Part shown: positions 6,496-64,000 of the stretch, in pieces
How positions within the stretch are numbered: position 1 is the first letter of the stretch
Layout of the letters: the number at the start of each line of letters is the position of its first letter
Source of the DNA: Paraspadella gotoi
Lineage: Eukaryota; Animalia; Chaetognatha
NCBI GenBank assembly: GCA_051294375.1
Contig: CM119271.1
Coordinates: 5,879,991-5,943,990, forward strand
Length of the DNA: 64,000 bases
Reading direction: 5' to 3'
Translations under genes and position numbers: made by a program
Notes under the pieces: model-generated
Databases searched by the model: none
What the model was told of the DNA's origin: nothing
What the model saw: only the letters and a program-made list of their open reading frames with translations

Positions 6496-6941
6496 CATAA
6501 AATTAGTGATAGATTAGTTAGGATGGGTCGGGTGGGGCACTTATTCGATACTCGTGATTTTGCTATTTTCTATCGCTTTTATGACGTTCAATTAAAGCCC
6601 CCTCCAAAAAAAAATGTAGGCTGGGAATTTTCTGTATTATTTTTTAAACGCAGACTGCGCCGTGCTTATATTGAATATTAATATATCTCTACTTCTTAAA
6701 AAAATCTACCATGAAATGCCAACTCATCGTCTTTCTCTCCCTCTATACTATTTGATAATATTTATTTTAACTTTGATTCTTCAATTTATATTTCGAATTT
6801 TGTACATATAATTTACTTTTTTGCATCTTTCCAAGCTATTAAATCTAAAATGAATGAACGACAGCCACACAGTAGCAAATGAATTTTGAATTTAAAGTGA
6901 TCCTTAGTCGGAAGGAAAAATCTTAAAAAACAAACCCTACA

Positions 6942-9691
6942 ATGAACGGCATGAGCTCCATGCCGTTCGACCCAAAGATGGCGTTTCAGACTGCTATCTT
7001 CGAAGTCGCGATGGAATCTGTTTTAAAAATGTCGAACCTCATCGATCTCAAAGTTTTTATTCTTTTCGAGGACGTCGAAAAACGGCGTCACTTTGGAGGT
7101 CACGAGGATCTTTGCGACTTGTATAACGACGGAATCTTGGAGGCCCAGAAAGGTTAGGAAACCACCATCCTTTTTTTTTGTTCAATAGTCTTCGAGGTTC
7201 CTTTCTCAAACCCCGCTTTCCTCAATTTTTTTTCCACACATCAGGAGACGTAGAACTTGCGGCTGGAAAAACCGATCTTCGAGTGGTCCACAAGAGCGAA
7301 GGCGTACGCGGACGTCTTTACGATCATCGACCGCCCGCTCCCGAGTTGGACGGTCCCTCCGTCTCCTCGTCCAACATTTCTACTTCCTCCAATCTCACGG
7401 TCATTCAGCCTTCGACCCAACAACCTCAAAACCAGTTTTTGGATTCGACAAAATCGAACCAAAAATTCCTTTACGAACAACTCTACAAGCAGCTCCAAAG
7501 CGTTCTTCTCCAGCAAGTCAAACGCGAGCCTCAATCTTTAAATTCCGAAGCGCAGCAACAACAGCAACATCCGGTCCCACAAGGTCAAATATTTGAAAAG
7601 AACTCTCGACAACCTCATCTCGTCGATGACAATGAAGGAACTTCAAGCACGGCAGCAGCTGCGGCGGCTTCTGTGAGTCAGCCGTTAGAGTTAGCCACGT
7701 CATCTCCAACAAAAACCTCCGCCCCTTCGGTCCACTCTATGGCGACGCGATTCCCTCGTGTCGCTGCTTTGGACAATGATTCTTTCGCTATGTCTCCCGA
7801 ATCGCCTCTAAATGAAGCTCATTATTCACCCATTGAAAATCCTGAGCCGGCGGTCAAGATGTCTAAGAGAAATATCCTTAAGGCTGATTTGGAGGAGAGA
7901 TTAAACCTGGAGGAAAATGACGCTTCGGACTGCGGCTCGGACGGCGCTTCATCGGAGCGGAAACGAGGCGCCGCCACCCTCGATGAGGCACTTGATGCAA
8001 AGATCCCGAAGATCGATGAGATCTACGTCACGGACCCCGTGTTGGAGCAAAAGATTAAAAAAATCGAGGAGGACATAGGTTTCGACATCGCCCGAGAATA
8101 CCACGACAAAACCAAGCACCTGCTCAGCAACGTCCGACAGCCCCGCCAACCCAGCTCCCCTCTGACGTCGGCCAATTTTGACGGGCGCATGCGCCAAATC
8201 GTTGTCAAACACCACGCCAGCCAGATCATCGTCCACCCTCCGGTGGGTGCCCAGCGCCATAATCCTAACTTTCAGCAGCCTCAAATTATTTACCAGCAGC
8301 AGGCTGTTCCTCAAATCCGGACTTTAGTTCCTAACCCTCCCTATCCGGGACCAGGAACGACGCTCGTTTCTTCGGACGGAGTCCTGAGTTTATGTCCTTC
8401 AACGGAGAGTCAACAGACGACGAGTGGCACTGAGAAAACTGCTATTTCCGCACCTACACCGGTAGACAAACCGCGGATCATTGTAACGGCCGCTTCGGCA
8501 GTTGAACGTTCCGTTGCTGCCAAGAACAAAGAGATCGCCTCTATCGTGACCCCCCCACTCAGCGTTTTTCCTGGAAGGACGATCGCCGCAAACCCCTCCG
8601 GTTCCATTACTCGAGTTCCAGACGTTGGCCACTACATAATCGTTACTCCCAGCACCCCAATGGCGTCGGCCGTCTTTACGTCATCGTCACCCGGGACTGC
8701 TAAATTGTCTACCATTGGCGCCGGTTCCAGTACCATTCCATCGTCGATCAACATTCCGGTCTCTAACGTTGGCACCGTTTCTAGTGCGGTTCCATCGACA
8801 ATATCTACCTTAGATAATTCCAGCTCTGTTTCTTTGACCACCATCGATGATCTCGCCAAGGGCGTTTTGACGGGTGTTCAAGGCAACGTCTTCAAAAAAG
8901 ATCTCATCAAAAAAGTTGACGATTTGGACGGGATTCCTTCCTCGGGTATTTCATGTGCGTCATCTTCGGTAGTTAGTCGGAACTTGAACCTCGAGTCTTC
9001 TATGTCAAAATCCCCGATTTCCTCTGCGTCGACAACATTGCCGTCGATTTCCGGGAAACCTCTCGGCGCTGTTATCGTTCCTTCGTCGAAAGACCCGCCG
9101 TCCACCCGCGCGTGCTCGACGGGAAAAGAGGAACCCAACCAGGCTGAACTTATGATTAAGCTGTACCAAACTTTAGCCGAGGTGGTTTTCGGACCTCAGG
9201 GAGCGGATCGTCCAGAGTCCTCGGCAGTGACGTCACAGACTAGGCAAGACCAGCCCAATGGGGTCGTTCTCTCCGATTCGAAGGAGGAGGAAGACGTCGC
9301 GGTGTCGAAAGACCCGACCCCTGAGCATGTTCCGCCCATCGTTTGTCAACCGAGTCGGCAAGTTTTCTCTTTGACCGCGCTGGAGGAGTCCACCGCGGAG
9401 ACTGCGAACGAGGCCGGGAGCCCGTTATCTACGATTTCTGAGGCAACCGTTCAGTCGAGTTCGACCGGTCTCGGCGAGGGAGAGAACGTGTGCCATATTT
9501 GCCAGTACAGGTTCAAAAGGATATCTCATTTGCGTCAACACGTTCAAGAAGTTCACGAAAAAGAACGAAGGTTCAGCTGCGAGATTTGCAGGAGATTGTT
9601 CAAACGGGCCGAGCATCTGAGGAAGCACATGAGAACTGTCCACAAAGGCGCCAAACCGGACGAGGAGAGCGAGTGCATCGTTCTCACATGA
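6942..9691 (+). CDS. C2H2 zinc-finger protein A: shared N-terminal domain, long S/T/Q/P-rich linker, 2 C-terminal fingers (exons 6942-7152, 7245-9691)
   Basis: A GT-AG intron at 7153-7244 joins AQK|GDVEL in frame. Fingers are CHIC-x12-HVQEVH and CEIC-x12-HMRTVH. Confidence 0.88.
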
Positions 9692-10366
9692 TTTTGAAGC
9701 AGCATGAAAGGGCACCTCTGGAGGGAGAATTTATTTTCGTTTTACAATGTACTATTTTTTTCTGGCTTTTTGAAAGTAATTTTATTTATTAACGTGCATT
9801 TAATCTCCTATTTTGATCGTGCATGTTTGTAGGGTGTAGACGGCATAGCATGTGACTTTTGAAATGCTCTTTAAATTAGATAAATTCTTCATTCGTCTAT
9901 GTTTCCGTTCTTCTGTCCTGGCTTGGCTCTAAAACGTATTATACCCAATGAGCTTTTATTTAGTTTTATACTATTTTGTTCTGATATACATATTACATAT
10001 ACTTTATTATGAAAAGCTTCGTTTCCGTAAAAACTAAAATGGACCGAAATTTTTTATTCCTGTATGAATTGGTTTTCATAAAACATTCTTTTATCTTGTT
10101 TTTGGTTTATTATTACTTAAAAAACTTGATATATTCATCTCCAATATTGATGTATGATTATTGATTAATGCTGTAAAAATTACAAAACAAGTAGTTCAAA
10201 ACATTTTTACACCCGTTTTGTTTACAGTTTACTCCATGTTAGACTAATTGTCGACTTTATTTGTTCAGGTCGTAATTCTCATTTTGAAACATATGTAAAC
10301 GTATCATCGACACTCTTAATCGTCAATAAATTTTATTTCGTACAATCGTTTCAGAAAAAAAAACGG

Positions 10367-12089
10367 ATGGCGCTGCCCTCCATGCCCTCGTCTTGGGCGT
10401 CTCGCAAGAGTTTTCAGGATGCAATGGTTCGTCGCCGCGAGGCGGAGAACGATCACCGCGACAGATGGCGCAATAACAGTCTATATTTTCAACGCGCCGC
10501 AGTGGCCTGCGATAAGCAGAACTCTTGGACCTCGGAGGAGTCCTTCAAGGGGAGCATGAAGGCCTTCGCCAAAAAAACCCAGTCGGAGGAGAAAATGATC
10601 GCGTTGGAGAAGAGACGAGAGCGACTCGGCGAGCTGCTTGGTCAAGAACGGCGACTGTATGAGGAAGAGCTAAAGGCCATTACACCCGGAAATCGAGAAA
10701 CGATACAGGTGATAAATGGCTTCCGTTTAGGTGGGAATGTCGAAACTATGGGATATTTCTCCCAAGTTTCTTTTGATATTCTTTATTATTGACATAATTT
10801 GACGAGAGTTTGGAAAATATTCAACATATTATTTATGCCTACAGGAGATTCGCGAAAAGATCGCGGAATTGAGGACGACGCGCGAGGACACTCGTCGAAA
10901 AGAGGCCGATGAGAAATTCTACCAACACTTTCTCAACAACAACCCCGACCTGCGAAAGGTTCGGCGAGACACTGACCAGAAGAAGATGGTCGTCGCCTGG
11001 GAGGATCAGATCGAGGAAGCTAAGATGAAGAGGGAGGAGGAGGCGGCGTTGAAGGCGCGGGAAGAAGAAGAGGCTCAACGAATGAGAAAGGAAGAGGAAA
11101 ATGAAGAGAGACGGCGCTTGGAGATGAAAAGAATTACGGAGGAACGCGCCAAAGCGGCCTTGCAAATGCAGGTGCAAGAGTTGCAGAACCGGGAGCGCGT
11201 TTCTCGCCGATTGAAAGAGGAAGAAGAGAACTTGTTGCGTCAGGGTTTTCTGATCGCCGATCTGAAGCAGCAGCGCGAAGCGCAGGAGTCGCTTCGCCGC
11301 GAGAGGGAATACCGCAAGGCGCTCATCAGACAGCACAAGGCCGTACTGAGACGACGTGCCCAAGACGTACAGGAAGAGCTCGAACAGGATATGGCCATCC
11401 TCAAAACGTTAGCCGAGCAAGAGGCAACGGAGAGACACGTCGTTTCTTCGCGAAGGGAAAAAGCCGTCGCCGACGTGGCTTGGATGCGGCGCGTTCTTGA
11501 GGACCAAATGCGCCTCGAACAGCAAAGGAATATCGAACTGGAGGCAATGTATCAAGAGGAAGCTGCTCGCGTTTGGCGAAAACGAGACGCCGAGTGGGAG
11601 CGAGAACGGCTCGCCCGGCAACGTTTGATGCAGGAAGTCTTTGATGAACGCGAGAACCAGTTGCGGGAAAAGATGACGGCGGTGCGGCAAGAGAGGGAGG
11701 AGGCGCTACGGCGCAGAGAAGAGGCCCTCGCCGAGGTGGAGATAGCCAATAAAATGGCCAAGGAAGAGGAGGAAGATCTGAGGGCGATGAAGCAAAAATC
11801 TCGAAGGGACATGGAATCCCAGCGGGACGCCAAGGTCGAGAGACTCGCTCTCGAACGACTCCATTTGAGAGAGGAAGAGCAAGAAGAGCGTAGACGCGCG
11901 CGCGAATACGACGAAATGATCGCGAGAGAGACCGACAGGTTTAGGAGGGACGAGGGCACGCTGGAGAGTCCGACAGTCTCGGATCGATCCGTCGCCAGTA
12001 AATCGAGCCTCAGGTCAAATCCTCCATGGGCCACCTACGAAGATACGGATGACTCTCACCAAATGCGGAGGAAAAGCGCTTGGACTTAA
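10367..12089 (+). CDS. TCHP: Trichoplein keratin filament-binding protein (exons 10367-10708, 10845-12089)
   Basis: N-terminus MALPSMPSSW...RWRNNSLYF...KQNSWTSEESFKGSMKAF, a long E/R/K coiled coil, EEAARVWRKRDAEWERERLARQRLMQEV and C-terminal RKSAWT* are all trichoplein-like. Confidence 0.9.
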
Positions 12090-12338
12090 TAACAAATTCC
12101 TATATTGTCAATTCTTTCGACCCATGTGAATTTTTTTAATCAAAGATGAAAGCAGTATTCGTATCCGTCCAAACTTCTTTCTGTGATCTCACAAACTTAT
12201 TTTCGTGAATTGTTCTATTCCGCACACAATTTTGTATATTTTTACACAATTTAGCTTCTTAGAGTGTAATTACATGACGTAATTATTATTATTTAAAATA
12301 TTCCTGATTTACAGTCCAACATTCAACGAATTAAAAAA

Positions 12339-13427
12339 ATGTCAGTCGCCCGATCCGACGTCACGGAGGCCGTGGAAAGTCAAACTTTCGAAATTCTCAT
12401 GGAGTCTGTGTTAAAGATGTCGAAACTTATGAATGTCTCCGTCTTCCTCCTAGTGGAAAACCGTTTGCGGCAGCGATGTTACGGTGGCAGCGACGCTTTC
12501 TGCCTCGCCTACTCAAAAGGCCGCATGAGGGCTCGGGCCGGCGACCTTCGTCTCGGCGTTGAGGATCTCGACGCTGAAGTGGAGGAGGAAGATTGGTTGG
12601 CGAGAGTTGAGGACGTCGACGAAGAGTCCGTCAAGTCACGACGGAGCGACGTTGACTACGTTCCCGATGAGTACGACGATGTCGCTTCGAACGAAAATGA
12701 TGACGTCTCGGAGTTTTCCCTGTCGACGCACGACGGAAGAACGCGACGGCACCGACCGAAAAAGAAATCCAATCGACGGAATTTTTCTTCGTCGCCCGAG
12801 GAGAGAGGCGCTGACGATTACGACGACGGCGTGGTTGTCGGGGACGAGGGCGGATGTGGCGCCAATGACGCCGACTTCGCGCGGCAGATCCGCGATTACG
12901 CTGAGGGTCGCGGCGGTTACGAAGATTCGTGGGACGCCGACGTCGTGGAATTCCTGAGATTTCAAGATGATGATGATGATGATGACGATTATCGTCGCGA
13001 TGTGAACCGTGTTGACGACGTTGTCGACCACGACGACACCTCTGCCACTGACGATGAATGGAAACCGGTAAATTATGGCAAGGGAAAAATATATCAGCGA
13101 GAAAGACGAAAATACATTTCGAAGGAGAAAAAAAGAAAAGCCCGGATGAGCGAGGAGGCTGCGGCGGCGGCGACGTCGGCAAACTCTGATAAAAAACCTT
13201 TCAAAGTCGAAAAGTCCGAATCGGCGGCGCCTGAAGCCGATAAGAAAAATTACACTTCCGGTAGTTGTCCTTACTGCGATCAACATTTTAACAAGTTAAA
13301 ACAGCATGTGCAGGACGTTCATGAATGCGAAAGAAAGTACTCTTGCGAGATTTGCGCCAAGAGATTTAAAAGAGACTCCCACTTGAGGCAGCACTTGAAA
13401 GGCGTTCACAAAATCTATTTAAATTGA
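12339..13427 (+). CDS. C2H2 zinc-finger protein B, single exon: shared N-terminal domain, D/E-rich linker, 2 C-terminal fingers
   Basis: Uninterrupted 362-aa ORF. CPYC...HVQDVH-ECERKYS-CEICAKRFKRDSHLRQHLKGVH is closely similar to the gene A fingers. Confidence 0.88.
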   Translation: MSVARSDVTEAVESQTFEILMESVLKMSKLMNVSVFLLVENRLRQRCYGGSDAFCLAYSKGRMRARAGDLRLGVEDLDAEVEEEDWLARVEDVDEESVKSRRSDVDYVPDEYDDVASNENDDVSEFSLSTHDGRTRRHRPKKKSNRRNFSSSPEERGADDYDDGVVVGDEGGCGANDADFARQIRDYAEGRGGYEDSWDADVVEFLRFQDDDDDDDDYRRDVNRVDDVVDHDDTSATDDEWKPVNYGKGKIYQRERRKYISKEKKRKARMSEEAAAAATSANSDKKPFKVEKSESAAPEADKKNYTSGSCPYCDQHFNKLKQHVQDVHECERKYSCEICAKRFKRDSHLRQHLKGVHKIYLN

Positions 13428-13916
13428 TCGAGAGCTCGTTTTTATTTTTCCGCTTTTCGTCTCGGAGTTTGACGCCGCAACGTAAACGTTTTTTTGTTCG
13501 CATATTGCCCGTTTTACTCTTTCATATTGCGTGTATACGATCTTTCTTTTACATACTACCATTTTTTATTTATTTCCGCTTTATTTTTGAACGACTTGGA
13601 TAAAGAAGAAATCTTCAATTTATTGATTTGTTTTTTTGTTTTTTTTGACGGATTTATTTGCCCAGTTCAGCTCGTTAACCAAATGGCCGTCTCGGCGCGG
13701 AAATGATCTCCCTCCAACAGGATTCCCGCAAGTTTCGTTACCGACACCAATTTTCCCCTCATCGCCGACTCTGATCTCCTTCTCTCCCGCCTGAGGAAAC
13801 CCGCGCGAGAAAAAAAAAATTCTGAGGGGGGAAAGCTTTATGGAGAGAGAACAACCAAAAAAAAAAAAAAAAACAACAACAAAAAAACTGAAATAAAAAG
13901 TAAAAATCCTCACCAA

Positions 13917-16900
13917 ATGATTTTGCCGACAATGGAAACTTCCGCCTTCGAGATTCTGATGGAATCGGTGCTCAAGATGTCGTCCCTGATGGACGTGAGC
14001 GTGTTCGTGCTGGTAGAGAACCGCAACAATCAGCGGCGCTTCGGAGGAAGCAACCACCTCTGCGACATGTACTCAGGCGGCCGTCTCGAGGGCGAGGCCG
14101 ACGACGTTCGGCTGAAAGTCGACGGGCCGGCGACTGACTTGAAGTCGGTCGAATCGGGGAAGAAAGCGGAGGGAGATAATACTGAGGTAGGACGTTAGGA
14201 AGCGTGACTTTCGGGTCTTTTGACTCAAAAGTGAAGTTAGTTAATATTTTCTCAGAACTGTGTGTATTGATCCGTGATGTTTCTAGAATTGGATGACGGA
14301 CGGTTCGGATCGGATCGTTTGCACGTCGGGAAAACGAAGGGCGGAGGTCAATTCGGCGTCGGCAAAAAAGCCACGCACCGTTTCTCAGTTCATGAACGAG
14401 AGATATCCATGTACGTTTTATTCCACGTTTCTCCTTTTATTTTTCTCGTTTCGTGCCCTTTTTTTCATAAATGTCATTTTTTCATCTTGGAGTCCTTCGT
14501 CTCAGCACACTGTTTTTGTTTCCGAGAGTACTTATTTACCGATTTGCTATATATTTTATTGTATATTTTTATTTTACTTCCGTTTTCTTTTTTTTCCTTC
14601 TCTAAATATTATTCAAGACATTGTTTTTCTTTTAGCGGCCGACGCGGAGAACACTGAACCTCCAGACGACAACGATCAAAATTTCCAAAATCAGGAAGTC
14701 TTTGCCGAAATCAGCGGATATTACGACGAGGAGCAGGAGGTCGGATTCGGTCGTCAAAACTACCAAGAGGTGAGAGAGAAAAAGAGATGAATCATGAAGA
14801 GAGGGTTGTTAAACCTGAAGCATTGTTCTCTCTCTTTCGTCAGTCCAACGAGGAAGAATGGAACGAAAACGTTGAAACGCCGAGTACAAGACGAACTTCC
14901 AGACGGACAAGAAAATTGCGATCTACCGACTTTTCCGACGACTATTTCCCAGCTCCCGTGAGTCAGAATTTTTGGCAGTCTAATCTTTGTTTTGGTTCTT
15001 TTTTTAGTTTTACGTTTTGAAACAATATTTTTTTTAGGTAACACCGAAACAAGGTAAACAGAAGTTCAAGAAGAAAAGTCTGGATCAGCCGCTAGAACAA
15101 TACGATTGCAACGAAACCATCACCGTTGAAATGAAAGACGTTCAACCTTGGGGTGAGCTTTTCATTTTTACCTAGTGTGTCGGATGAAATCAAGAGTTTG
15201 TATTTAAACTGTACTACTTCATCCCCAAGCTATAGAATCGAACGGTGCGGGCGTGTTGGTGCCGTCAACTGCAAAGCCTGCCCCCAACATGCCCTACATG
15301 TGTGCCAGCGAAGAGTGTGCCACTAAGGCGAACACGTACTACAAGAGTAAAGACCTCAAAGACCACATCGTAACCCATCATGGAAAAGACATGTTCTTTG
15401 ATTGCGATTCTTGTCATACGCAAAGTCTTAGATTTAAGGTATATATTATTTCATTCCTTCTTTCATTCTCTTATCTGCTTTTTCGCTCGTTTGCCTTTTT
15501 TTTTCTTCCTTCCTATTATTCCACCAATTTCTTATTCTTTTCTCTTCTATTCAGGACATGAAGAAACACTTAAAAGAGTCCCATGGCATCACTCAAACCT
15601 TTATCTGCTTCATTTGTTATCGCGGTTTCATCGCTGGCACCCTGTATCACAAACACTGGGATGAGTACCACGACCGTAGCTGTAGGTATTGCTACATAAC
15701 CCTGCCCACCCTCGACGAGCTGAAGGATCATCTTGTCATCGTTCATCAAAAGGTTTACGATCAGGTTAGACGTAGTATTCGCTGGTTTGAATTGTGGCTT
15801 AGCCTTAGTTACATATTTAAATTACGACCGAGTATTTTTACATTAAAATTCTTCATGAGATCGTCTGTAGCGCTCAATGTATAACTAAAGCTGTTGTTTA
15901 AACCTCTCTTTGCCATGAAAGCAGGGGAATCCCGAGATTAATCCCAGGATGCATGCACGTAACCCGAAATTACTGCTTCGTTTTATTCAATACAAGTACT
16001 TGGTACTTGGTGCAACTGTATTGTACAGAAAAAGCGTTATTTTTTCAGTAACGGGATACCCGGAAAATGCAATCAGATGATCAAAAATTTAATTCGACGT
16101 AATTTTAAGCATTTTAGTACATTCTTGGAAGCGGGGCGAGGTATCATTAAAAGCTTTTTGTGTATATGATTCATACTTCTGTAGTCATTTGATCATTATT
16201 TATTACGTTGACGTACTAAACTTTAAATAAAAGTGGTGCAACAAATTGAAGTTTAATCTTAAAAAATAAAAAAATAATCTTATAGCAAAAATCGAAATCC
16301 GGCGGCGCCGGAAGTGCAAAGAACGCGCCATACCTGTGCAAATTGGAAGAGTGCGGCCTCACTTTCCACCAACAGCAGCAACTTTACGGCCATATTAGGA
16401 ACAACCACGGAAAGAACATCCGTTTCTACTGTAGCATCTGTCAAGAGGCGCAATTGGGACTGACTTTCACCGAGATCCGTTCTCACTTGATTGCCGATCA
16501 CGGTGCCAAGGTACGGTTCTAATAGAAAAGTGAACTGACTGCCTCTGAGTATCTCTACTATAATCCAAGTACTTTTTTGTTGTTTTTCCCCGTTGGTTTT
16601 GATTTTGATGATATTTTTATTTTGTTCAAAATCTGATTAACGACACTTCAACTCGTCTTCAGGTTAGTTTCTTATGCTATGTGGACGGATGCTTTCGCGC
16701 GTTCAAGGACAAAGAGCTTTACTTGGAGCATAAAAAGCTAGAACACGCTCATGAGTGCCGTTACTGCTTGTCCTGCTTTCCCTCCGACGATGATCTCCAA
16801 AATCACACCAAGGTTCGTTTCTCGATCTTTTGTCGTTTTCAAATTTGAAAGAACCCCCGACACGACTGGGGGGGGGGAGAGAATCCTGAAGTTTCTTTAT

Positions 16901-17294
16901 CCACTTTTCGTCTTGATATTAATTAACCTCAATAAAATAAAGCATATGGATATTCAAACAGTCAATAATTGCTATCTAATCATCAAATATTAATCAAATA
17001 GCAATAATTAATCGAATAAGCAAATCCACAAATATTCCTCGAAGTATCCACGTTGAAAACGTTTATTTCACATTGATGAGAGACAAATGATGAGACGGAA
17101 GTCGATTTCTCTCTTTACCGATGTAAAAGAGCATCTGCCTTACACATAGTCGTCTGGACTTACAAATTTAATATCTTCCACAGCATATCCATTCCATCCT
17201 CGACGAGGGTGGACTGACTTGTCGAAAATGCGGGATGCTCTGCGTAGACAACTATAAACTGAAGGTTCATCAACAGAGATGTTGGCATCGTTAA
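13917..17294 (+). CDS. C2H2 zinc-finger protein C, multi-exon: shared N-terminal domain and ~9 fingers
   Basis: Exon 1 carries the shared domain. Finger exons lie at ~15230-15438, 15555-15764, 16286-16510, 16663-16812 and 17184-17294 (CASEEC, CDSC, CFIC, CRYC, CKLEEC, CSIC, CYVDGC, CRYC, CRKC). Confidence 0.8.
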
Positions 17295-18168
17295 AACGCG
17301 GCTTCGGCGATGACGACTACGGGAATGATAAACTAGGAATCTCTTCCTGTTCCTTGGAACAGGCGATGTGAAAAAAAAAATTAGTTTCTCTTTAGTTTAT
17401 TGTTAAGAATTTAAAAAATCAACAAGAAACTTTTCTCATCAACATTTTTTAACTGTCTATACAGCTACTATTTAATTATTTTTATAAAAGAATCTGAATC
17501 GTCCTTTTTTTTTTTATCGTCGCAATCGCTAAGCGTTTGCGACGATATTGTAACGCTTTTGCGCATAAGTGGCGTCGGCGTCGTCGTTGTTGCAAAATGT
17601 AATTTTTCTTTCTGTTTATAATCTAATTTTCTTTTCTCAAATTTTCTTTTTTTTAGTATCAAAATTTGTCATCAATCAAGATATTTCTTATGCGATTGCG
17701 ACGATCCTTATGCTTTTAAGATTTTTTTTTTTGGCGTACGTAAAACACCCGAAAACTTGTAACTACTGGCCAGAGGGTTTTTTACCTACGTTTATGGAAA
17801 AGTTCACTTTTCTCGCCCTATGATTACAATGTTCTATATTATTCCCTTCATTTGACTTAATGTTGTATAAATTCTCTAGGCCTAATAAAATTTTATTATC
17901 AGGAAATTTATATTTATCTTTATTTTAATTTGGCGTATGAATTACTTTGAATTAAAATGGTTCCTAGACTTTGAAAAAATACATATAACATTTACAAATG
18001 ATGTTGCCATTCATTCTTTAGGTTTTAGACGTGTTAGATATGTAGACTATTTTGGACGCCCTTGTATATTAGTTTATTACTTTATTTGAATTTTATAGCG
18101 ATGTGCTCAAGGTTAAAAGCTTCGTTGAACTGACAGCTTGTTTCTGCCCATCCTGAATTCAAAACGTT

Positions 18169-21100
18169 ATGTTTCCCGCTTACGCCAATGCAGCAACCTC
18201 TTCCCCTAATGCCGCAAACTCTTCCCCTAATGCCGCAACCTCTTCCCCTAATGCAGCAACCTCTTCCCCTAATGCCGCAAATTTTCCTCCCAATGGCACC
18301 CCTGACTCTCCTTCAAAGACTCTGTCGACCGACGATGCTTCAGATTGGTTGAGAAACTCTAGCTTCGTTCCGCAATTGGGAAAAGTGATTTTCGATGCCA
18401 ATAGTGACGAATCAAGGACCGAAACCGATTCGAGCGACGGTCGGGCGAAGGCAAAGAAGAAGAAAAAGAAAAAGGAGAAAAAGAAAGAGAAACGACGCGC
18501 GCATCGAGAGTACAAGGAATATCAAGCTCGTCACCGTTGCGACCGGGGACACGGCCAAGATGAGAAGCAGTCAGAACCAAAATTAAATTTACCAAAAGGT
18601 TAATACAGTTGACCGTAAACGTCATCGTTGTTGTCGGCGTTCAAAATTATAGATCGCCTTATCATAAAAGTGTGCAATTGTATGAAACTAAATATTTTAT
18701 TTTAATATAGCTTTTTATCATCAAGGTCCTTTAAAATTGATAAGGTTATATTTCAAATGTTTGATCTAATTTTAATTTCCATCACATTATGATTAACTTA
18801 AATATATTTCTTTTCGTTTCGTTGCGTTTTGAAATTTGTTTGCAAAGTAAAGAGATTTTATTGAGATACAATAAATAATAATCCTTGTTATAACTCAATA
18901 AAATGTCTTGATTTTGCAATGAAAAACAATTTTATTTTATTTTTTCAGTCGTTGCCTCTTCTGATTCGTACAAAAACGAGTGAAGCTCTGCTCTGTTACG
19001 TCTCTTTCTCTTTTTTAATTTGTTATCATTTTACCATCTTTTACCTCTTTTTTTCTATCTCTTTATCTCTCACACATTTATGAATTCAATTTTTTTAAAA
19101 TTAAATTAAGTAAATTCGTTCAATTTAATTAATTCAGTTCATACTTTTAAATGTATTCATCTCAATTTAAACTTCCCCCGATATCCCACCTCCTCAGTTT
19201 CCGTCGGTTCCGTCTTCATCGAGGACGTGTTTGGTCTGTCTTCCGACGACGCGTTCCGCATTGATCGCCGCGGGGACGTTTATAACGTTGCCTATCAGTC
19301 CCTCTATGCGGGTCACGTGGCCGCCTTCAAGCGCCTCGTCGCTTTCGCCCTCGGCCCCGGCGCTATGGCAGTTGGCAAAAAGGCTCTGCGCGCTAAACGT
19401 CCCCAGGACAGATACTTTAATAAGGGGAACCGAGAGATGCTTGCCCGCCCTGCGGAGAAAATATTGGAGCTGTCTGCGGCTAACAATGACTTGGCGTTGG
19501 ACGTATCTGCTGTCCCCCTTCCGCCGGACAAGGAGACGACGCCCGGGCCCCCAGTGACATCCGCGGTGGGTGAGCTCGAGACTCTGGGCGTTCACGACGA
19601 GATGACCTTGAATTACGTCTGCGCCAGATCCCCCGTTGTCGTCAAGGAGGAGAAGAAATCCGAAATGACGCCTCAGGATTTAGTGCGGCTCAACATACGC
19701 CGATTTAACGAAGATCTGCTTGCTACTCCCCAAAACGAGGAGCTGTGGAAACGTTTCGTCAGCTATCAGGACGAGGCCGTGCCCCTTCTGGTTTCGGGCA
19801 TGACGGGCAAGTCCAAATCTGTCTCAAAAGAAATCGTCGAGAAGAAGCAAGCCATTCTGGAGAAGGCCCTTCTCAAGAATCCCGGCAGCTTGCAACTCCA
19901 TCTGCTTCAGTTCGACCTTCAGCGCGGGCTTTGGGACGAGCAGCGATGGCGTCACGGTTGGAAGCGTGTGCTTTTTAACCACCCTAACGACGTGGACCTC
20001 CACCTAAAGTACTTGACGAACTTTAAGTCGACGGTGGGCACATTCGATTTTCACGAACTGCTGAAAGAATTCGTCTCGTCACTAGCGTCTTTACGGGCCG
20101 CTAGGGACGGACGGAATGTCACCAAATCGACAAGTCTCTTTTTATTGCGTTTGGAAGATGGGATGCTGCTCTTCGTGCTTCATTTCGTCCACGTTATAGA
20201 ACAGGCTGGTTACCACGAGCGTGCCTTGGCCTGTTTTCAGGCGCTCATTGAGTTTAACCTGTTCCGCCCGGACCGTTACAAGTCGACTTCGTCCCGTTTG
20301 GAGCACGAGGATTTTGTGGCGGTCATGGAGGGATTTTGGGACAGCGGGGTCCCGAGATTCGGGGAGACGAACGCCGTAGGGTGGAATACGTTCGTAGACG
20401 CCTCGGATTCGGACGAGATTCCTCGCTGGACGGATGAAATGGGTAATACAATTATTGTAATTAATACAATTAAAATAGTAGTGAAAAGTGTCATCAAAAT
20501 TTGTGAAAGATTACGTATAAAATTGTTTTATTTCTTAATCTCAGCTTAGACTTAGAGGAAGACAAATCCGAATAAAAAAAAAACAGTGGCTGCGTAAATG
20601 CATGAGTATCACTTGCAAGGATTTTAAATAAATTATAATAAAAAAATTTTTTATACAAAAATTATATAATATTCCCGGATTTAATATTAAAAAGAATATT
20701 TTTTAAAATAATTAAAACATTCTTTAAAATATTATATGACTTTATTGATAAGGAAGCCACATAATTTGGGAGTTAATGCGATTATGAAAGTTTTGATTAA
20801 AAGTTTATTAGGATTAGTTATGTTATTATTTTGTAAGAGTGATAAAAGCTTTAATCTACTAAAGCTTATTCAAATTCAGGGTAAATGAATATATAATTTT
20901 TATATTAATTATATAAATTATATATATAATTAAAAACTAATAGATTTATAATATAAAGTTAAATAAAAAAGTTAAAGAGGATTAAAACTTAAAAAAAAAT
21001 ATAGTAAAAAAAAGATTTTTACAAAAAACCTAACCCAAGATAAGGTGGTCGAATTATAAACAGTGTCAGTATTATCAATTTTGTTAAAGCTCTTATAAAA

Positions 21101-56135: not shown

Positions 56136-58378
56136 CTACATCCATCCCAGCACGAGCCTGCCAACCCCAGCGCCGGTGGCCAAACCGACAGCGACGACAA
56201 GACAGAGCAGCGTCCCCGCGACGTCGGCATCTTCAGGCATCACGCGGCGAGGCGCCTGAAGTGAGGAAAAAAGGTAGACACGAGATGGGGCGGGGGAAAT
56301 AAAATATTTAAATATTTCAACGCGAGGTTCGTTGGGAGAAATGACTCGGCGAACCTGCATGAAGGCGACGGTCGAAAGATACCCATTGGAGAAGCCAAAG
56401 AAAACCGTAAAGATAATGGGAAAAGCGTCGTGGCGGAAGACGACAGGGATCACGCGAGGGCGAGACAGGACCTGCAAGTTTTAATTGGATTAATTAAGTC
56501 GAGACCAACTATATCGTCCCCATTTCGTTTTTCTGATCTCTCCTACCTGATTGCAGAACATGAAAAGCGGGATGAACCCAAGCCTGGTTGACATGACGAG
56601 AGGGAGAACCCATCTCGGCGCTTGAAAATTGGGCCACTGCCGAATCCCGGCCACGTTTCGTCCTACGAAGTCGCAAGCATTGAACAAAAGAAAACAAAAG
56701 ACGGGCACGAAGAACTTCTCGTAGTTGGATTCCTGAGGATGCGTGGCCGGAACGTTGGCGGTTGAGCCGTTGCCAAGCGACGGCTCTGTCGATGACCATG
56801 GCGTCGCAGAAACGGGCAAGATCAGCGACGCGAGGCAAGGGAACACGGCGATGGTGGCTACAAAGTTGAGAAAAAGAGTTAGCGTCTCGGAGGAGATAAG
56901 TCCGAGAACGCGGGTCAGCGTGTCGGCGTGATGACGCACTGCGCGAAATCGCAGCGTCCAGGAGCCCCGTCGTTGACGGCGAGCAAGGTCGTTTCGCACG
57001 TACACTTTCTGATAACGGCGGAACAAATGGTATTTCATGAGGGATTTACGTTGATAACTTGTAAAGATTTTTTTTTTAACCTTTAAAGTGACGCTATCCT
57101 GCTGAGACGCTGTCAGCAGCGGGATCCGCTCCGCCGCCGACGCAGCACCTTCAGTCTCCGTCAGCGTCGCAGCCCTTCGACCCAGCAAGCCGCAAACGAC
57201 GAAAGCGGCGCAAAAGACGCAGAGGGCGCCGACGAGAAAGTAAGCAAAGGAAGTGAAAAGGAGGACGCGGTCGTCAGCGGCCACGGCGAGGGTGACGACG
57301 GCGACGAGAGAAGCGAAGGTGCCGCAGACTGACTGACCGTTGAGGACCGCCTGATGATCGGAGACTAATTTTTTTAAAAATCCGCATATATCATTACCGT
57401 GGTTTCATTCTACAAGGAAAAAACAGTCAAGTTTGGTGAATGGTGATGGTTAAGGGTATTTAAGGGTTAGGGTTGGTCAGAGTTAAGGGTGTTTAAGATT
57501 AATGGCGGTTAGGGTTAACCGTTAATGTTCAGGATGGTTAAGGGAAGGGGGTAAGGGGCAGTTAGGGTTAGGGGTGGTGACTGGTGACAATTTTACCTTT
57601 TTTTTTTATTAACCTTTACCTGCATATAGATCGGCGACATTGAGGCGGCCAAGCCGAACACCCCGGACTGCATCAACGCCGACGCCCCGATGACGACGAC
57701 GACGGAGCCGATGGAGACACGGAAGAACTCGTCCTGCCATCTGTCGGTGTTGACGAGCACAAAAGCGGCGGTTGCGGCCAGAACCAGAGCCACAACCACC
57801 GCGGGAACCACGATTCGCGTCTTGATTGACAGGCGGTTCGTCAGAGCCGCAGCCACGAGGAGGAAGAAGATGTTGGGCGTTAACGTGGTGGCGGCCAGCT
57901 GGGACTCGAAACTCTCCTGTAGCAGGGTTCTGAAAAAAAAATGGTTATGTCAACCAATCAAAATATATTAAAAGCGTTTCAAAATTATTATTAATAATAC
58001 ATTTAAAACCATTCAATGTTGAATTTACTGTTCCATTCTTTCACCGAATAATTTTTAATTTTTGTCGTACCTCTCTGCCGGAAATTCCCCGGAGCCTTGA
58101 TCAGTCACGTTTCTGAACTTGTACTGCCAATACGAATCGGGCGTGATGAAGAAGTTCCATGGCACCAACGTGCAGACTCCGAGGAAAAGAAAGGCCCAGT
58201 AGATTGCGTCGCAGCGGAGTCGTCGTCGAGAGGAGCTGAGTTCGTGAATGCCTTCGTGCGGGATGAGAGACTCGTAGACGAAATCGGGATCGGAAGAGGG
58301 TTTGGCGGAAGAGGGTCTCGACGAGGGCTTGGGGGGCGGAGGCTCGGGAAGCACCGTAATTTCATCTTCGATCGACAT
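56136..58378 (-). CDS. SLC29A: Equilibrative nucleoside transporter (SLC29 family), multi-exon
   Basis: FLFLGVCTLVPWNFFITPDSYWQYKFRN, QSGVFGLAA..PIYMQAVLNGQSVCGTF, IAVFP, FVPVFCFLLFNACDFVGR, RLGFIPLFMFCN, FGFSNGYLSTVAFM.AP and GLATGA. Confidence 0.95.
57449..57577 (+). repeat. Degenerate TTAGGG/TTAAGGG G-rich tract in an SLC29 intron
   Basis: Multiple ggttaaggg / ggttaggg units. Confidence 0.6.
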
Positions 58379-63209: not shown

Positions 63210-63499
63210 GTGAAGCAAAGAATTACAAATATGGTAACAATTGCAATTATAAAAAATCTTATACATAAGCATTAGCATCCGGATCGTCGCAATCGAATAG
63301 CAAAAATCTGGTCCCTTGACAAACTTTTATACTCAAAAAATTAAACTATAATTGAAAACTAAGTTTTAGACATAACAAACTTGATTAATATATAAAAAAA
63401 TTTAAAAATAATAGTGATTCGACTCACGTATCGAAACAAGGAAAAAGAGTGGAAGAGAAAATTAAGTGAAAAACAACTGAAAAGTAATAATTTATTGTT

Positions 63500-64000
63500 C
63501 CTCATGGAGTCGAATTTCTTCATGGTTTTTCCCCACCAACAGAAGAGCATCTGCTCAGCAAACGCGACATCTCCAGACAAAAAACCTCCCCTTATCCTTC
63601 CCTCCACTACCTCAGCGCGATGCCAAGAGGCAAAATCACTCGTAACTAGCAAACCAAAAGGGGAGAATCCCGCAAAGATTTCCGGTGAACCACCAGACCC
63701 ACTTGACTGGACGTCGTAGAAGGGGGGGGATGAAAAGCCGCAAAGGCCAGTGCAAGGACAAAAACCGGGTATGGAAAACCAGTCGGCCGGACATCCTTGG
63801 AGCCCCGCCCGCATGCTTTTGGGACTTGCGAGACCTGAAAGAGCGACAAGCGGGGACTACGCGGACTGCCACGCCCGCGTTTGCGGCAAGCGGAATAGGT
63901 GCAACTGTGCGGAGCCCCGGAACGGATCATCGAAGAATGAAGCGTCCGAGCCAACAACGACGACGACGCCATTTATGGGGACTGTCGTCCCAAAATCGTC
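63500..64000. other. GC-rich, exon-like segment truncated by the window end; identity unresolved
   Basis: Composition resembles exons elsewhere in the window. Two + frames stay open from ~63720 to the end, with no recognisable motif. Confidence 0.25.

Follow-up and report, generated by a model that had tools for sequence, protein, structure and literature searches.

A predicted MADS-like module at the N-terminus of three C2H2 zinc-finger genes marks a large family of likely transcription factors

Three genes on the + strand of the window (the whole stretch of 64,000 nucleotides that was analysed) encode proteins with an N-terminal module that is MADS-like by prediction, a linker and C-terminal C2H2 fingers. 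Gene A (6942..9691; exons 6942-7152 and 7245-9691) encodes 885 aa, where the module (6972..7267, i.e. 6972-7152 + 7245-7267, located by translation and profile) is split by the intron and followed by a long S/T/Q/P linker and two fingers at 9491..9643 (residues 820-870; Pfam zf-C2H2 E 3.6e-8, in two stretches). Gene B (12339..13427) has a single coding exon for 362 aa, with the module at 12360..12563 (the copy used for the AlphaFold model and the structure matches), an acidic linker with basic patches and two fingers at 13266..13409 (residues 310-357; by Pfam and pattern), the first of them shortened. Gene C (13917..17294) encodes 553 aa in 10 coding exons (13917-14186, 14287-14410, 14636-14769, 14844-14957, 15038-15152, 15230-15438, 15555-15764, 16286-16510, 16663-16812 and 17184-17294), with the stop at 17294; its module lies at 13920..14123 (by translation and profile) and is followed by a linker and nine C2H2-type fingers. 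The pattern counts of 2, 2 and 9 fingers agree with the differing arrays (2, 2, ~9) given in the initial annotation.

The gene models were compared with contigs of one public run, X1, which was taken as RNA from a guessed label and whose spliced joints support this. The gene A intron inside the module (7153-7244, GT..AG) is spanned by a spliced X1 contig, gene B is covered with zero differences by the contig 12315-13652, and seven of the nine modelled introns of gene C are spanned at GT..AG ends; its last two introns are predicted, as drawn in the model only. The 553-aa model of gene C is 68.5% identical, end to end, to the independent protein P0004. The N-terminal relatives of gene A (P0005, P0006 and P0008) are 70-94% identical to it, and gene B has the module and the C-terminal part in common with P0001-P0003, P0007, P0009 and P0010. 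In the gene B linker (~12876-13110) two short motifs flank the acidic run, one on either side; they are kept in P0001-P0003 despite the divergence of the remaining linker and are possible cofactor or localisation signals.

The X1 contig of gene A starts at a candidate trans-splice site with an AG acceptor (6834..6836, + strand) and carries 21 non-matching letters at its 5' end, of which the tested 10-12 base pieces were found nowhere in the window. The last nine of these letters are the same as in most chaetognath spliced leaders of Table 3 in PMC2481426, and in the literature this nine-base string was found beside the term 'spliced leader' in that paper and in a kinetoplastid paper. Three X1 contigs start directly after an AG (6836, 10355 and 12315; AG frequency 5.2%); a fourth contig start, 13894, does not follow an AG and adjoins a masked repeat. 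Between 4312 and 24460 the genes are arranged head-to-tail on the + strand with short gaps, in the order pyridine nucleotide-disulphide oxidoreductase, A, a TPH-domain (trichoplein-like) gene at ~10367-12089, B, C, NRDE-2 and a last gene without a Pfam match, which we take to be TAPT1-like. The best named matches of the upstream oxidoreductase exon are only 43% identical, and an exon at 18157-18603, attached to the NRDE-2 gene as its first (joint 18596 to 19196), has a tandem repeat of 7 residues and a poly-Lys stretch. The run of genes is a candidate operon resolved by trans-splicing, and the chaetognath operons described in PMC12460157 are likewise head-to-tail, on one strand and with short gaps. 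The window is part of a compact animal genome. The host is somewhat more likely than not a chaetognath, judged by the single leader rather than by a phylogeny; another trans-splicing animal is less likely.

A 56-aa N-terminal domain common to the three genes had been proposed from 6999-7152 + 7245-7258, 12387-12554 and 13947-14114, and the translations agreed letter for letter. The gap-free alignment with 23 of 56 invariant positions was reproduced; 100,000 shuffles averaged 0.35 invariant positions and never exceeded 5. Pairwise, the copies share 25, 30 and 37 of the 56 residues, and only 36-48% of the third codon positions are identical, so what is seen is protein-level conservation of old paralogues and not a recent DNA repeat. 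The conserved unit is, however, longer than first drawn (~68-78 aa), and a profile search of the 64-kb window gave no fourth copy. Pfam gave no family for the three copies at E<=10, so the domain was rightly called unrecognised in this respect and rightly set apart from KRAB, SCAN, BTB and ZAD, but its predicted fold is an already known one, the MADS/MEF2 core. Membership of the KRAB, SCAN or BTB families is ruled out by this result for the three N-terminal pieces, and Pfam, run at E<=1 on 46 short members, found none of these domains either. A ZAD needs four zinc-binding cysteines, whereas the module has one conserved Cys (107/147) and the single zf-AD match (E 0.006) falls on the finger region of gene A, off the module, which rules out a ZAD-ZNF member.

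For the gene B module AlphaFold predicted a long helix (2-28), a beta-hairpin (strands 33-37 and 43-47) and a short helix (49-56) with a pLDDT of 86.9; by this model and its structure matches the layout is the helix I, beta-hairpin, helix II of the MADS-box fold. The closest fold was the MEF2-type (type II) MADS-box / MEF2 domain (Pfam SRF-TF PF00319; PDB 7x1n, 6bz1, 3kov), with an alignment spanning MEF2 residue 12 to residue 88-92, and the match to SRF / MCM1 (type I MADS) was shorter. The monomer model is coil after residue 56, and columns 67, 69 and 71 of the 147-row alignment alternate as hydrophobic positions, where a third beta-strand may form. Near-invariant residues are E19, K23, F33, E37, R43, G47 and L51, and strand 1 has five consecutive hydrophobic positions in at least 99% of the rows, as would be expected if both of its faces were buried in a dimer. 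At E<=1, SRF-TF matched 8 of 147 members and none of the three window copies, and the best score of 16.4 bits (P0055) stayed below the gathering cut-off of 26 bits; this, together with the missing DNA-contact residues, rules out membership of the MADS-box family as defined. The module nevertheless likely descends from a MEF2/SRF-type gene. Since all structure scores against MADS-type folds were middling, the identity was <20% and small alpha/beta units recur, the likeness could also be convergence, i.e. a small helix-hairpin-helix module of independent origin that is MADS-like in layout only, which we consider decidedly unlikely.

According to PMC4145620, R3, N16, K23, R24, K30, K31 and E34 are conserved residues of MADS domains that make contacts or belong to a network, and G27 lets the domain approach DNA closely. 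We mapped the MEF2 numbering onto the 147 rows with an offset of +11, taken from the range starts of the structure alignment. At the positions named in that text, Lys or Arg occurred in 0/147 rows at each of R24, K30 and K31 and in 22/147 at K23, Gly in 0/147 at G27 and Glu in 0/147 at E34. The K30 position is Glu in 146/147 rows and the E34 position Lys or Arg in 147/147, by sequence an apparent charge swap of this pair relative to MADS. With offsets of 10-12 the K30 and K31 counts remained 0/147, and R24 rose to 22/147 at offset 12. Columns 13 and 16, on the side with which MADS domains touch DNA, are hydrophobic. Thus, in comparison with MEF2-type MADS, the module is without the basic N-terminal arm (K/R 3.9% across the 30 residues preceding the conserved Glu), has lost R24, G27, K30 and K31 and is net acidic (median charge -3; <=0 in 137/147); the DNA contacts of SRF and MCM1 are likewise lost. 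With the arm missing and the contact positions, as mapped from the PMC4145620 text, acidic or hydrophobic, it is very improbable that the module itself still binds DNA as a divergent MADS box of altered specificity, even though the MADS helix length is retained and the NRF1 dimerisation domain touches the DNA backbone non-specifically at some points (PMC10810270). A predicted MADS fold without its DNA-gripping residues is therefore likely a pairing module.

A profile of the three copies was searched against 1.84 billion cluster representatives and found at least 154 proteins at E<=0.001, of which 150 were listed; the number is a lower bound because three related copies served as the seed. The claim of a conserved N-terminal module of a family is thereby borne out, and in 150 of the 151 proteins checked the module begins no later than residue 50. 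Among 84 homologues of >=240 aa, only 8 have C2H2 fingers (by pattern) versus 59 with an unannotated helical domain of ~100-125 aa, found by an iterated local profile, and 17 have neither. Among these 17 are P0016, which carries CENP-B/Tc5 HTH domains (E 2e-26), and P0022 and P0024, whose BED-like fingers are weak; a BED finger was also found in P0075 (<240 aa; E 1e-4) and a FLYWCH domain in the later match P0163 (E 1e-5). The CENP-B HTH, FLYWCH and BED domain types are transposon-derived according to PMC10027918. The C2H2 minority holds although the search was seeded from C2H2 members, and it rules out that the module is ZNF-associated in the way of KRAB or ZAD, which the initial annotation had suggested.

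In a quick unrooted tree (88 rows, 68 columns; 44 of 85 inner branches open), 11 C2H2 rows and two gene A-like fragments form one group (SH-aLRT 88, not starred), the FLYWCH member is nested in a 100-support group with seven helical-domain members, and the BED-like pair is placed among helical-domain members. This poorly resolved tree suggests that the helical domain is the usual partner, with other readers swapped in. No name was attached to any of 20 homologues looked up (sources JGI/IMG, ENA and Logan). P0011 and P0079 have two tandem modules, then short basic repeats and a Gly/Tyr-rich tail, and no DNA-binding domain was recognised in these two proteins; the tandem modules could form an intramolecular pseudo-dimer.

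NRF1/EWG (PDB 8k4l) has the same architecture of a MADS-like dimerisation domain, a linker and a separate DNA-binding domain, and by analogy the module may work like the NRF1 dimerisation domain. This was the sole comparable case found of other MADS-like folds used mainly for pairing. At E<=10 the Nrf1 Pfam family was absent from the matches of genes A and B and of the first exon of C, and at E<=0.05 it was absent from the best five matches of each of 85 homologues; an NRF1 family member is ruled out, as the NRF1-type DNA-binding domain was not detected. NRF1/EWG is also one conserved gene, whereas the module family is large with varied partners. An NRF1/EWG-type ancestor in place of MEF2/SRF, with the dimerisation domain kept and the DNA-binding domain replaced, appears unlikely. 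ZAD, BTB and SCAN modules self-associate, and ZAD and BTB have elsewhere the same architectural role as proposed here. The ZAD-, BTB-, SCAN-, KRAB- and FiNZ-ZNF families are alike in having a lineage-restricted N-terminal module, a disordered linker and a C-terminal DNA-binding domain, but differ from the present family in predicted fold and in that C2H2 is its minority partner; FiNZ is a 28-aa cyprinid motif (PMC10547256). No published description of the module family was found in the literature searched, which lacks most subscription papers.

Taken together, the N-terminal position, the family size, the partner domains and the absence of basic residues, with the predicted fold, make it quite probable that a MADS/MEF2-type core without DNA-contact residues serves as the dimerisation module of a large lineage-restricted family, likely of transcription factors with a separate, swappable C-terminal DNA reader. 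By analogy with SRF, MEF2 and NRF1, two modules would pair, with their long helices antiparallel and a four-stranded sheet formed in common, and would thereby bring two readers, each on a flexible linker, to paired half-sites; a reader would be a C2H2 pair or array, CENP-B HTH, FLYWCH, BED or the unannotated helical domain. Proteins with two fingers, such as A and B, would in this way gain an avidity that they lack alone, and heterodimers between paralogues may form. Dimerisation is likely the primary job, and it would be invisible to a Gal4 repression/activation assay alone.

The groove over the second helices of MEF2 binds HDAC4 or Cabin1. It is conceivable, albeit not likely, that the module chiefly recruits cofactors, as KRAB and FiNZ do, by docking a co-repressor or chromatin enzyme, and that dimerisation is secondary. 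The match spans the MEF2 domain, which by the entry titles is HDAC motif-bound in PDB 7xuz, 8pde and 1n6j, the face corresponding to the DNA-contact face of MADS is hydrophobic and the near-invariant residues may exceed what folding needs; however, these residues can also be read as salt bridges and core, and an effector role would supplement dimerisation instead of replacing it.

A large module-headed family of likely gene regulators has apparently been undescribed so far, and the module gives a concrete identity to genes left unnamed by annotation pipelines. Animal MADS genes are described as binding DNA through the MADS domain itself, and the animal MADS family is small according to PMC6639411, in contrast to a disarmed core with many paralogues, fused to separate C-terminal domains. 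If the dimerisation reading is true, such an expanded animal family would be a new class beside the ZAD, BTB and SCAN modules and show a route by which a DNA-binding fold is repurposed. More tentatively, and with the balance somewhat against it, one phylum, probably the arrow worms, may have rebuilt part of its transcription factor toolkit from a MADS box with a disarmed DNA-binding face. Each genome would then hold dozens of heterodimerising paralogues with captured transposase readers (CENP-B HTH, FLYWCH, BED), C2H2 arrays or, most often, a ~115-aa helical DNA-binding domain of undescribed fold. In that case the family would supply candidates for the unassigned promoter motifs of the chaetognath genome paper (PMC12460157). 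If the host is a chaetognath, the module family also bears on the ~2,250 families specific to the phylum and on the motifs with no known factor that are reported there. The unannotated helical partner domain lends itself directly to structural and SELEX studies.

Elsewhere in the window, a MITE-like element at 17515-17705 carries perfect inverted repeats of 14 bases at its termini (17516-17529 and 17692-17705) and, at the left end, a hairpin of 16 bases. Many X1 contigs are stacked there, to a very high depth, and the window has partial copies of the element at 63274-63340 and 63952-64000. On the - strand, 56493-57404 holds an exon of an equilibrative nucleoside transporter (Pfam E 4e-18).
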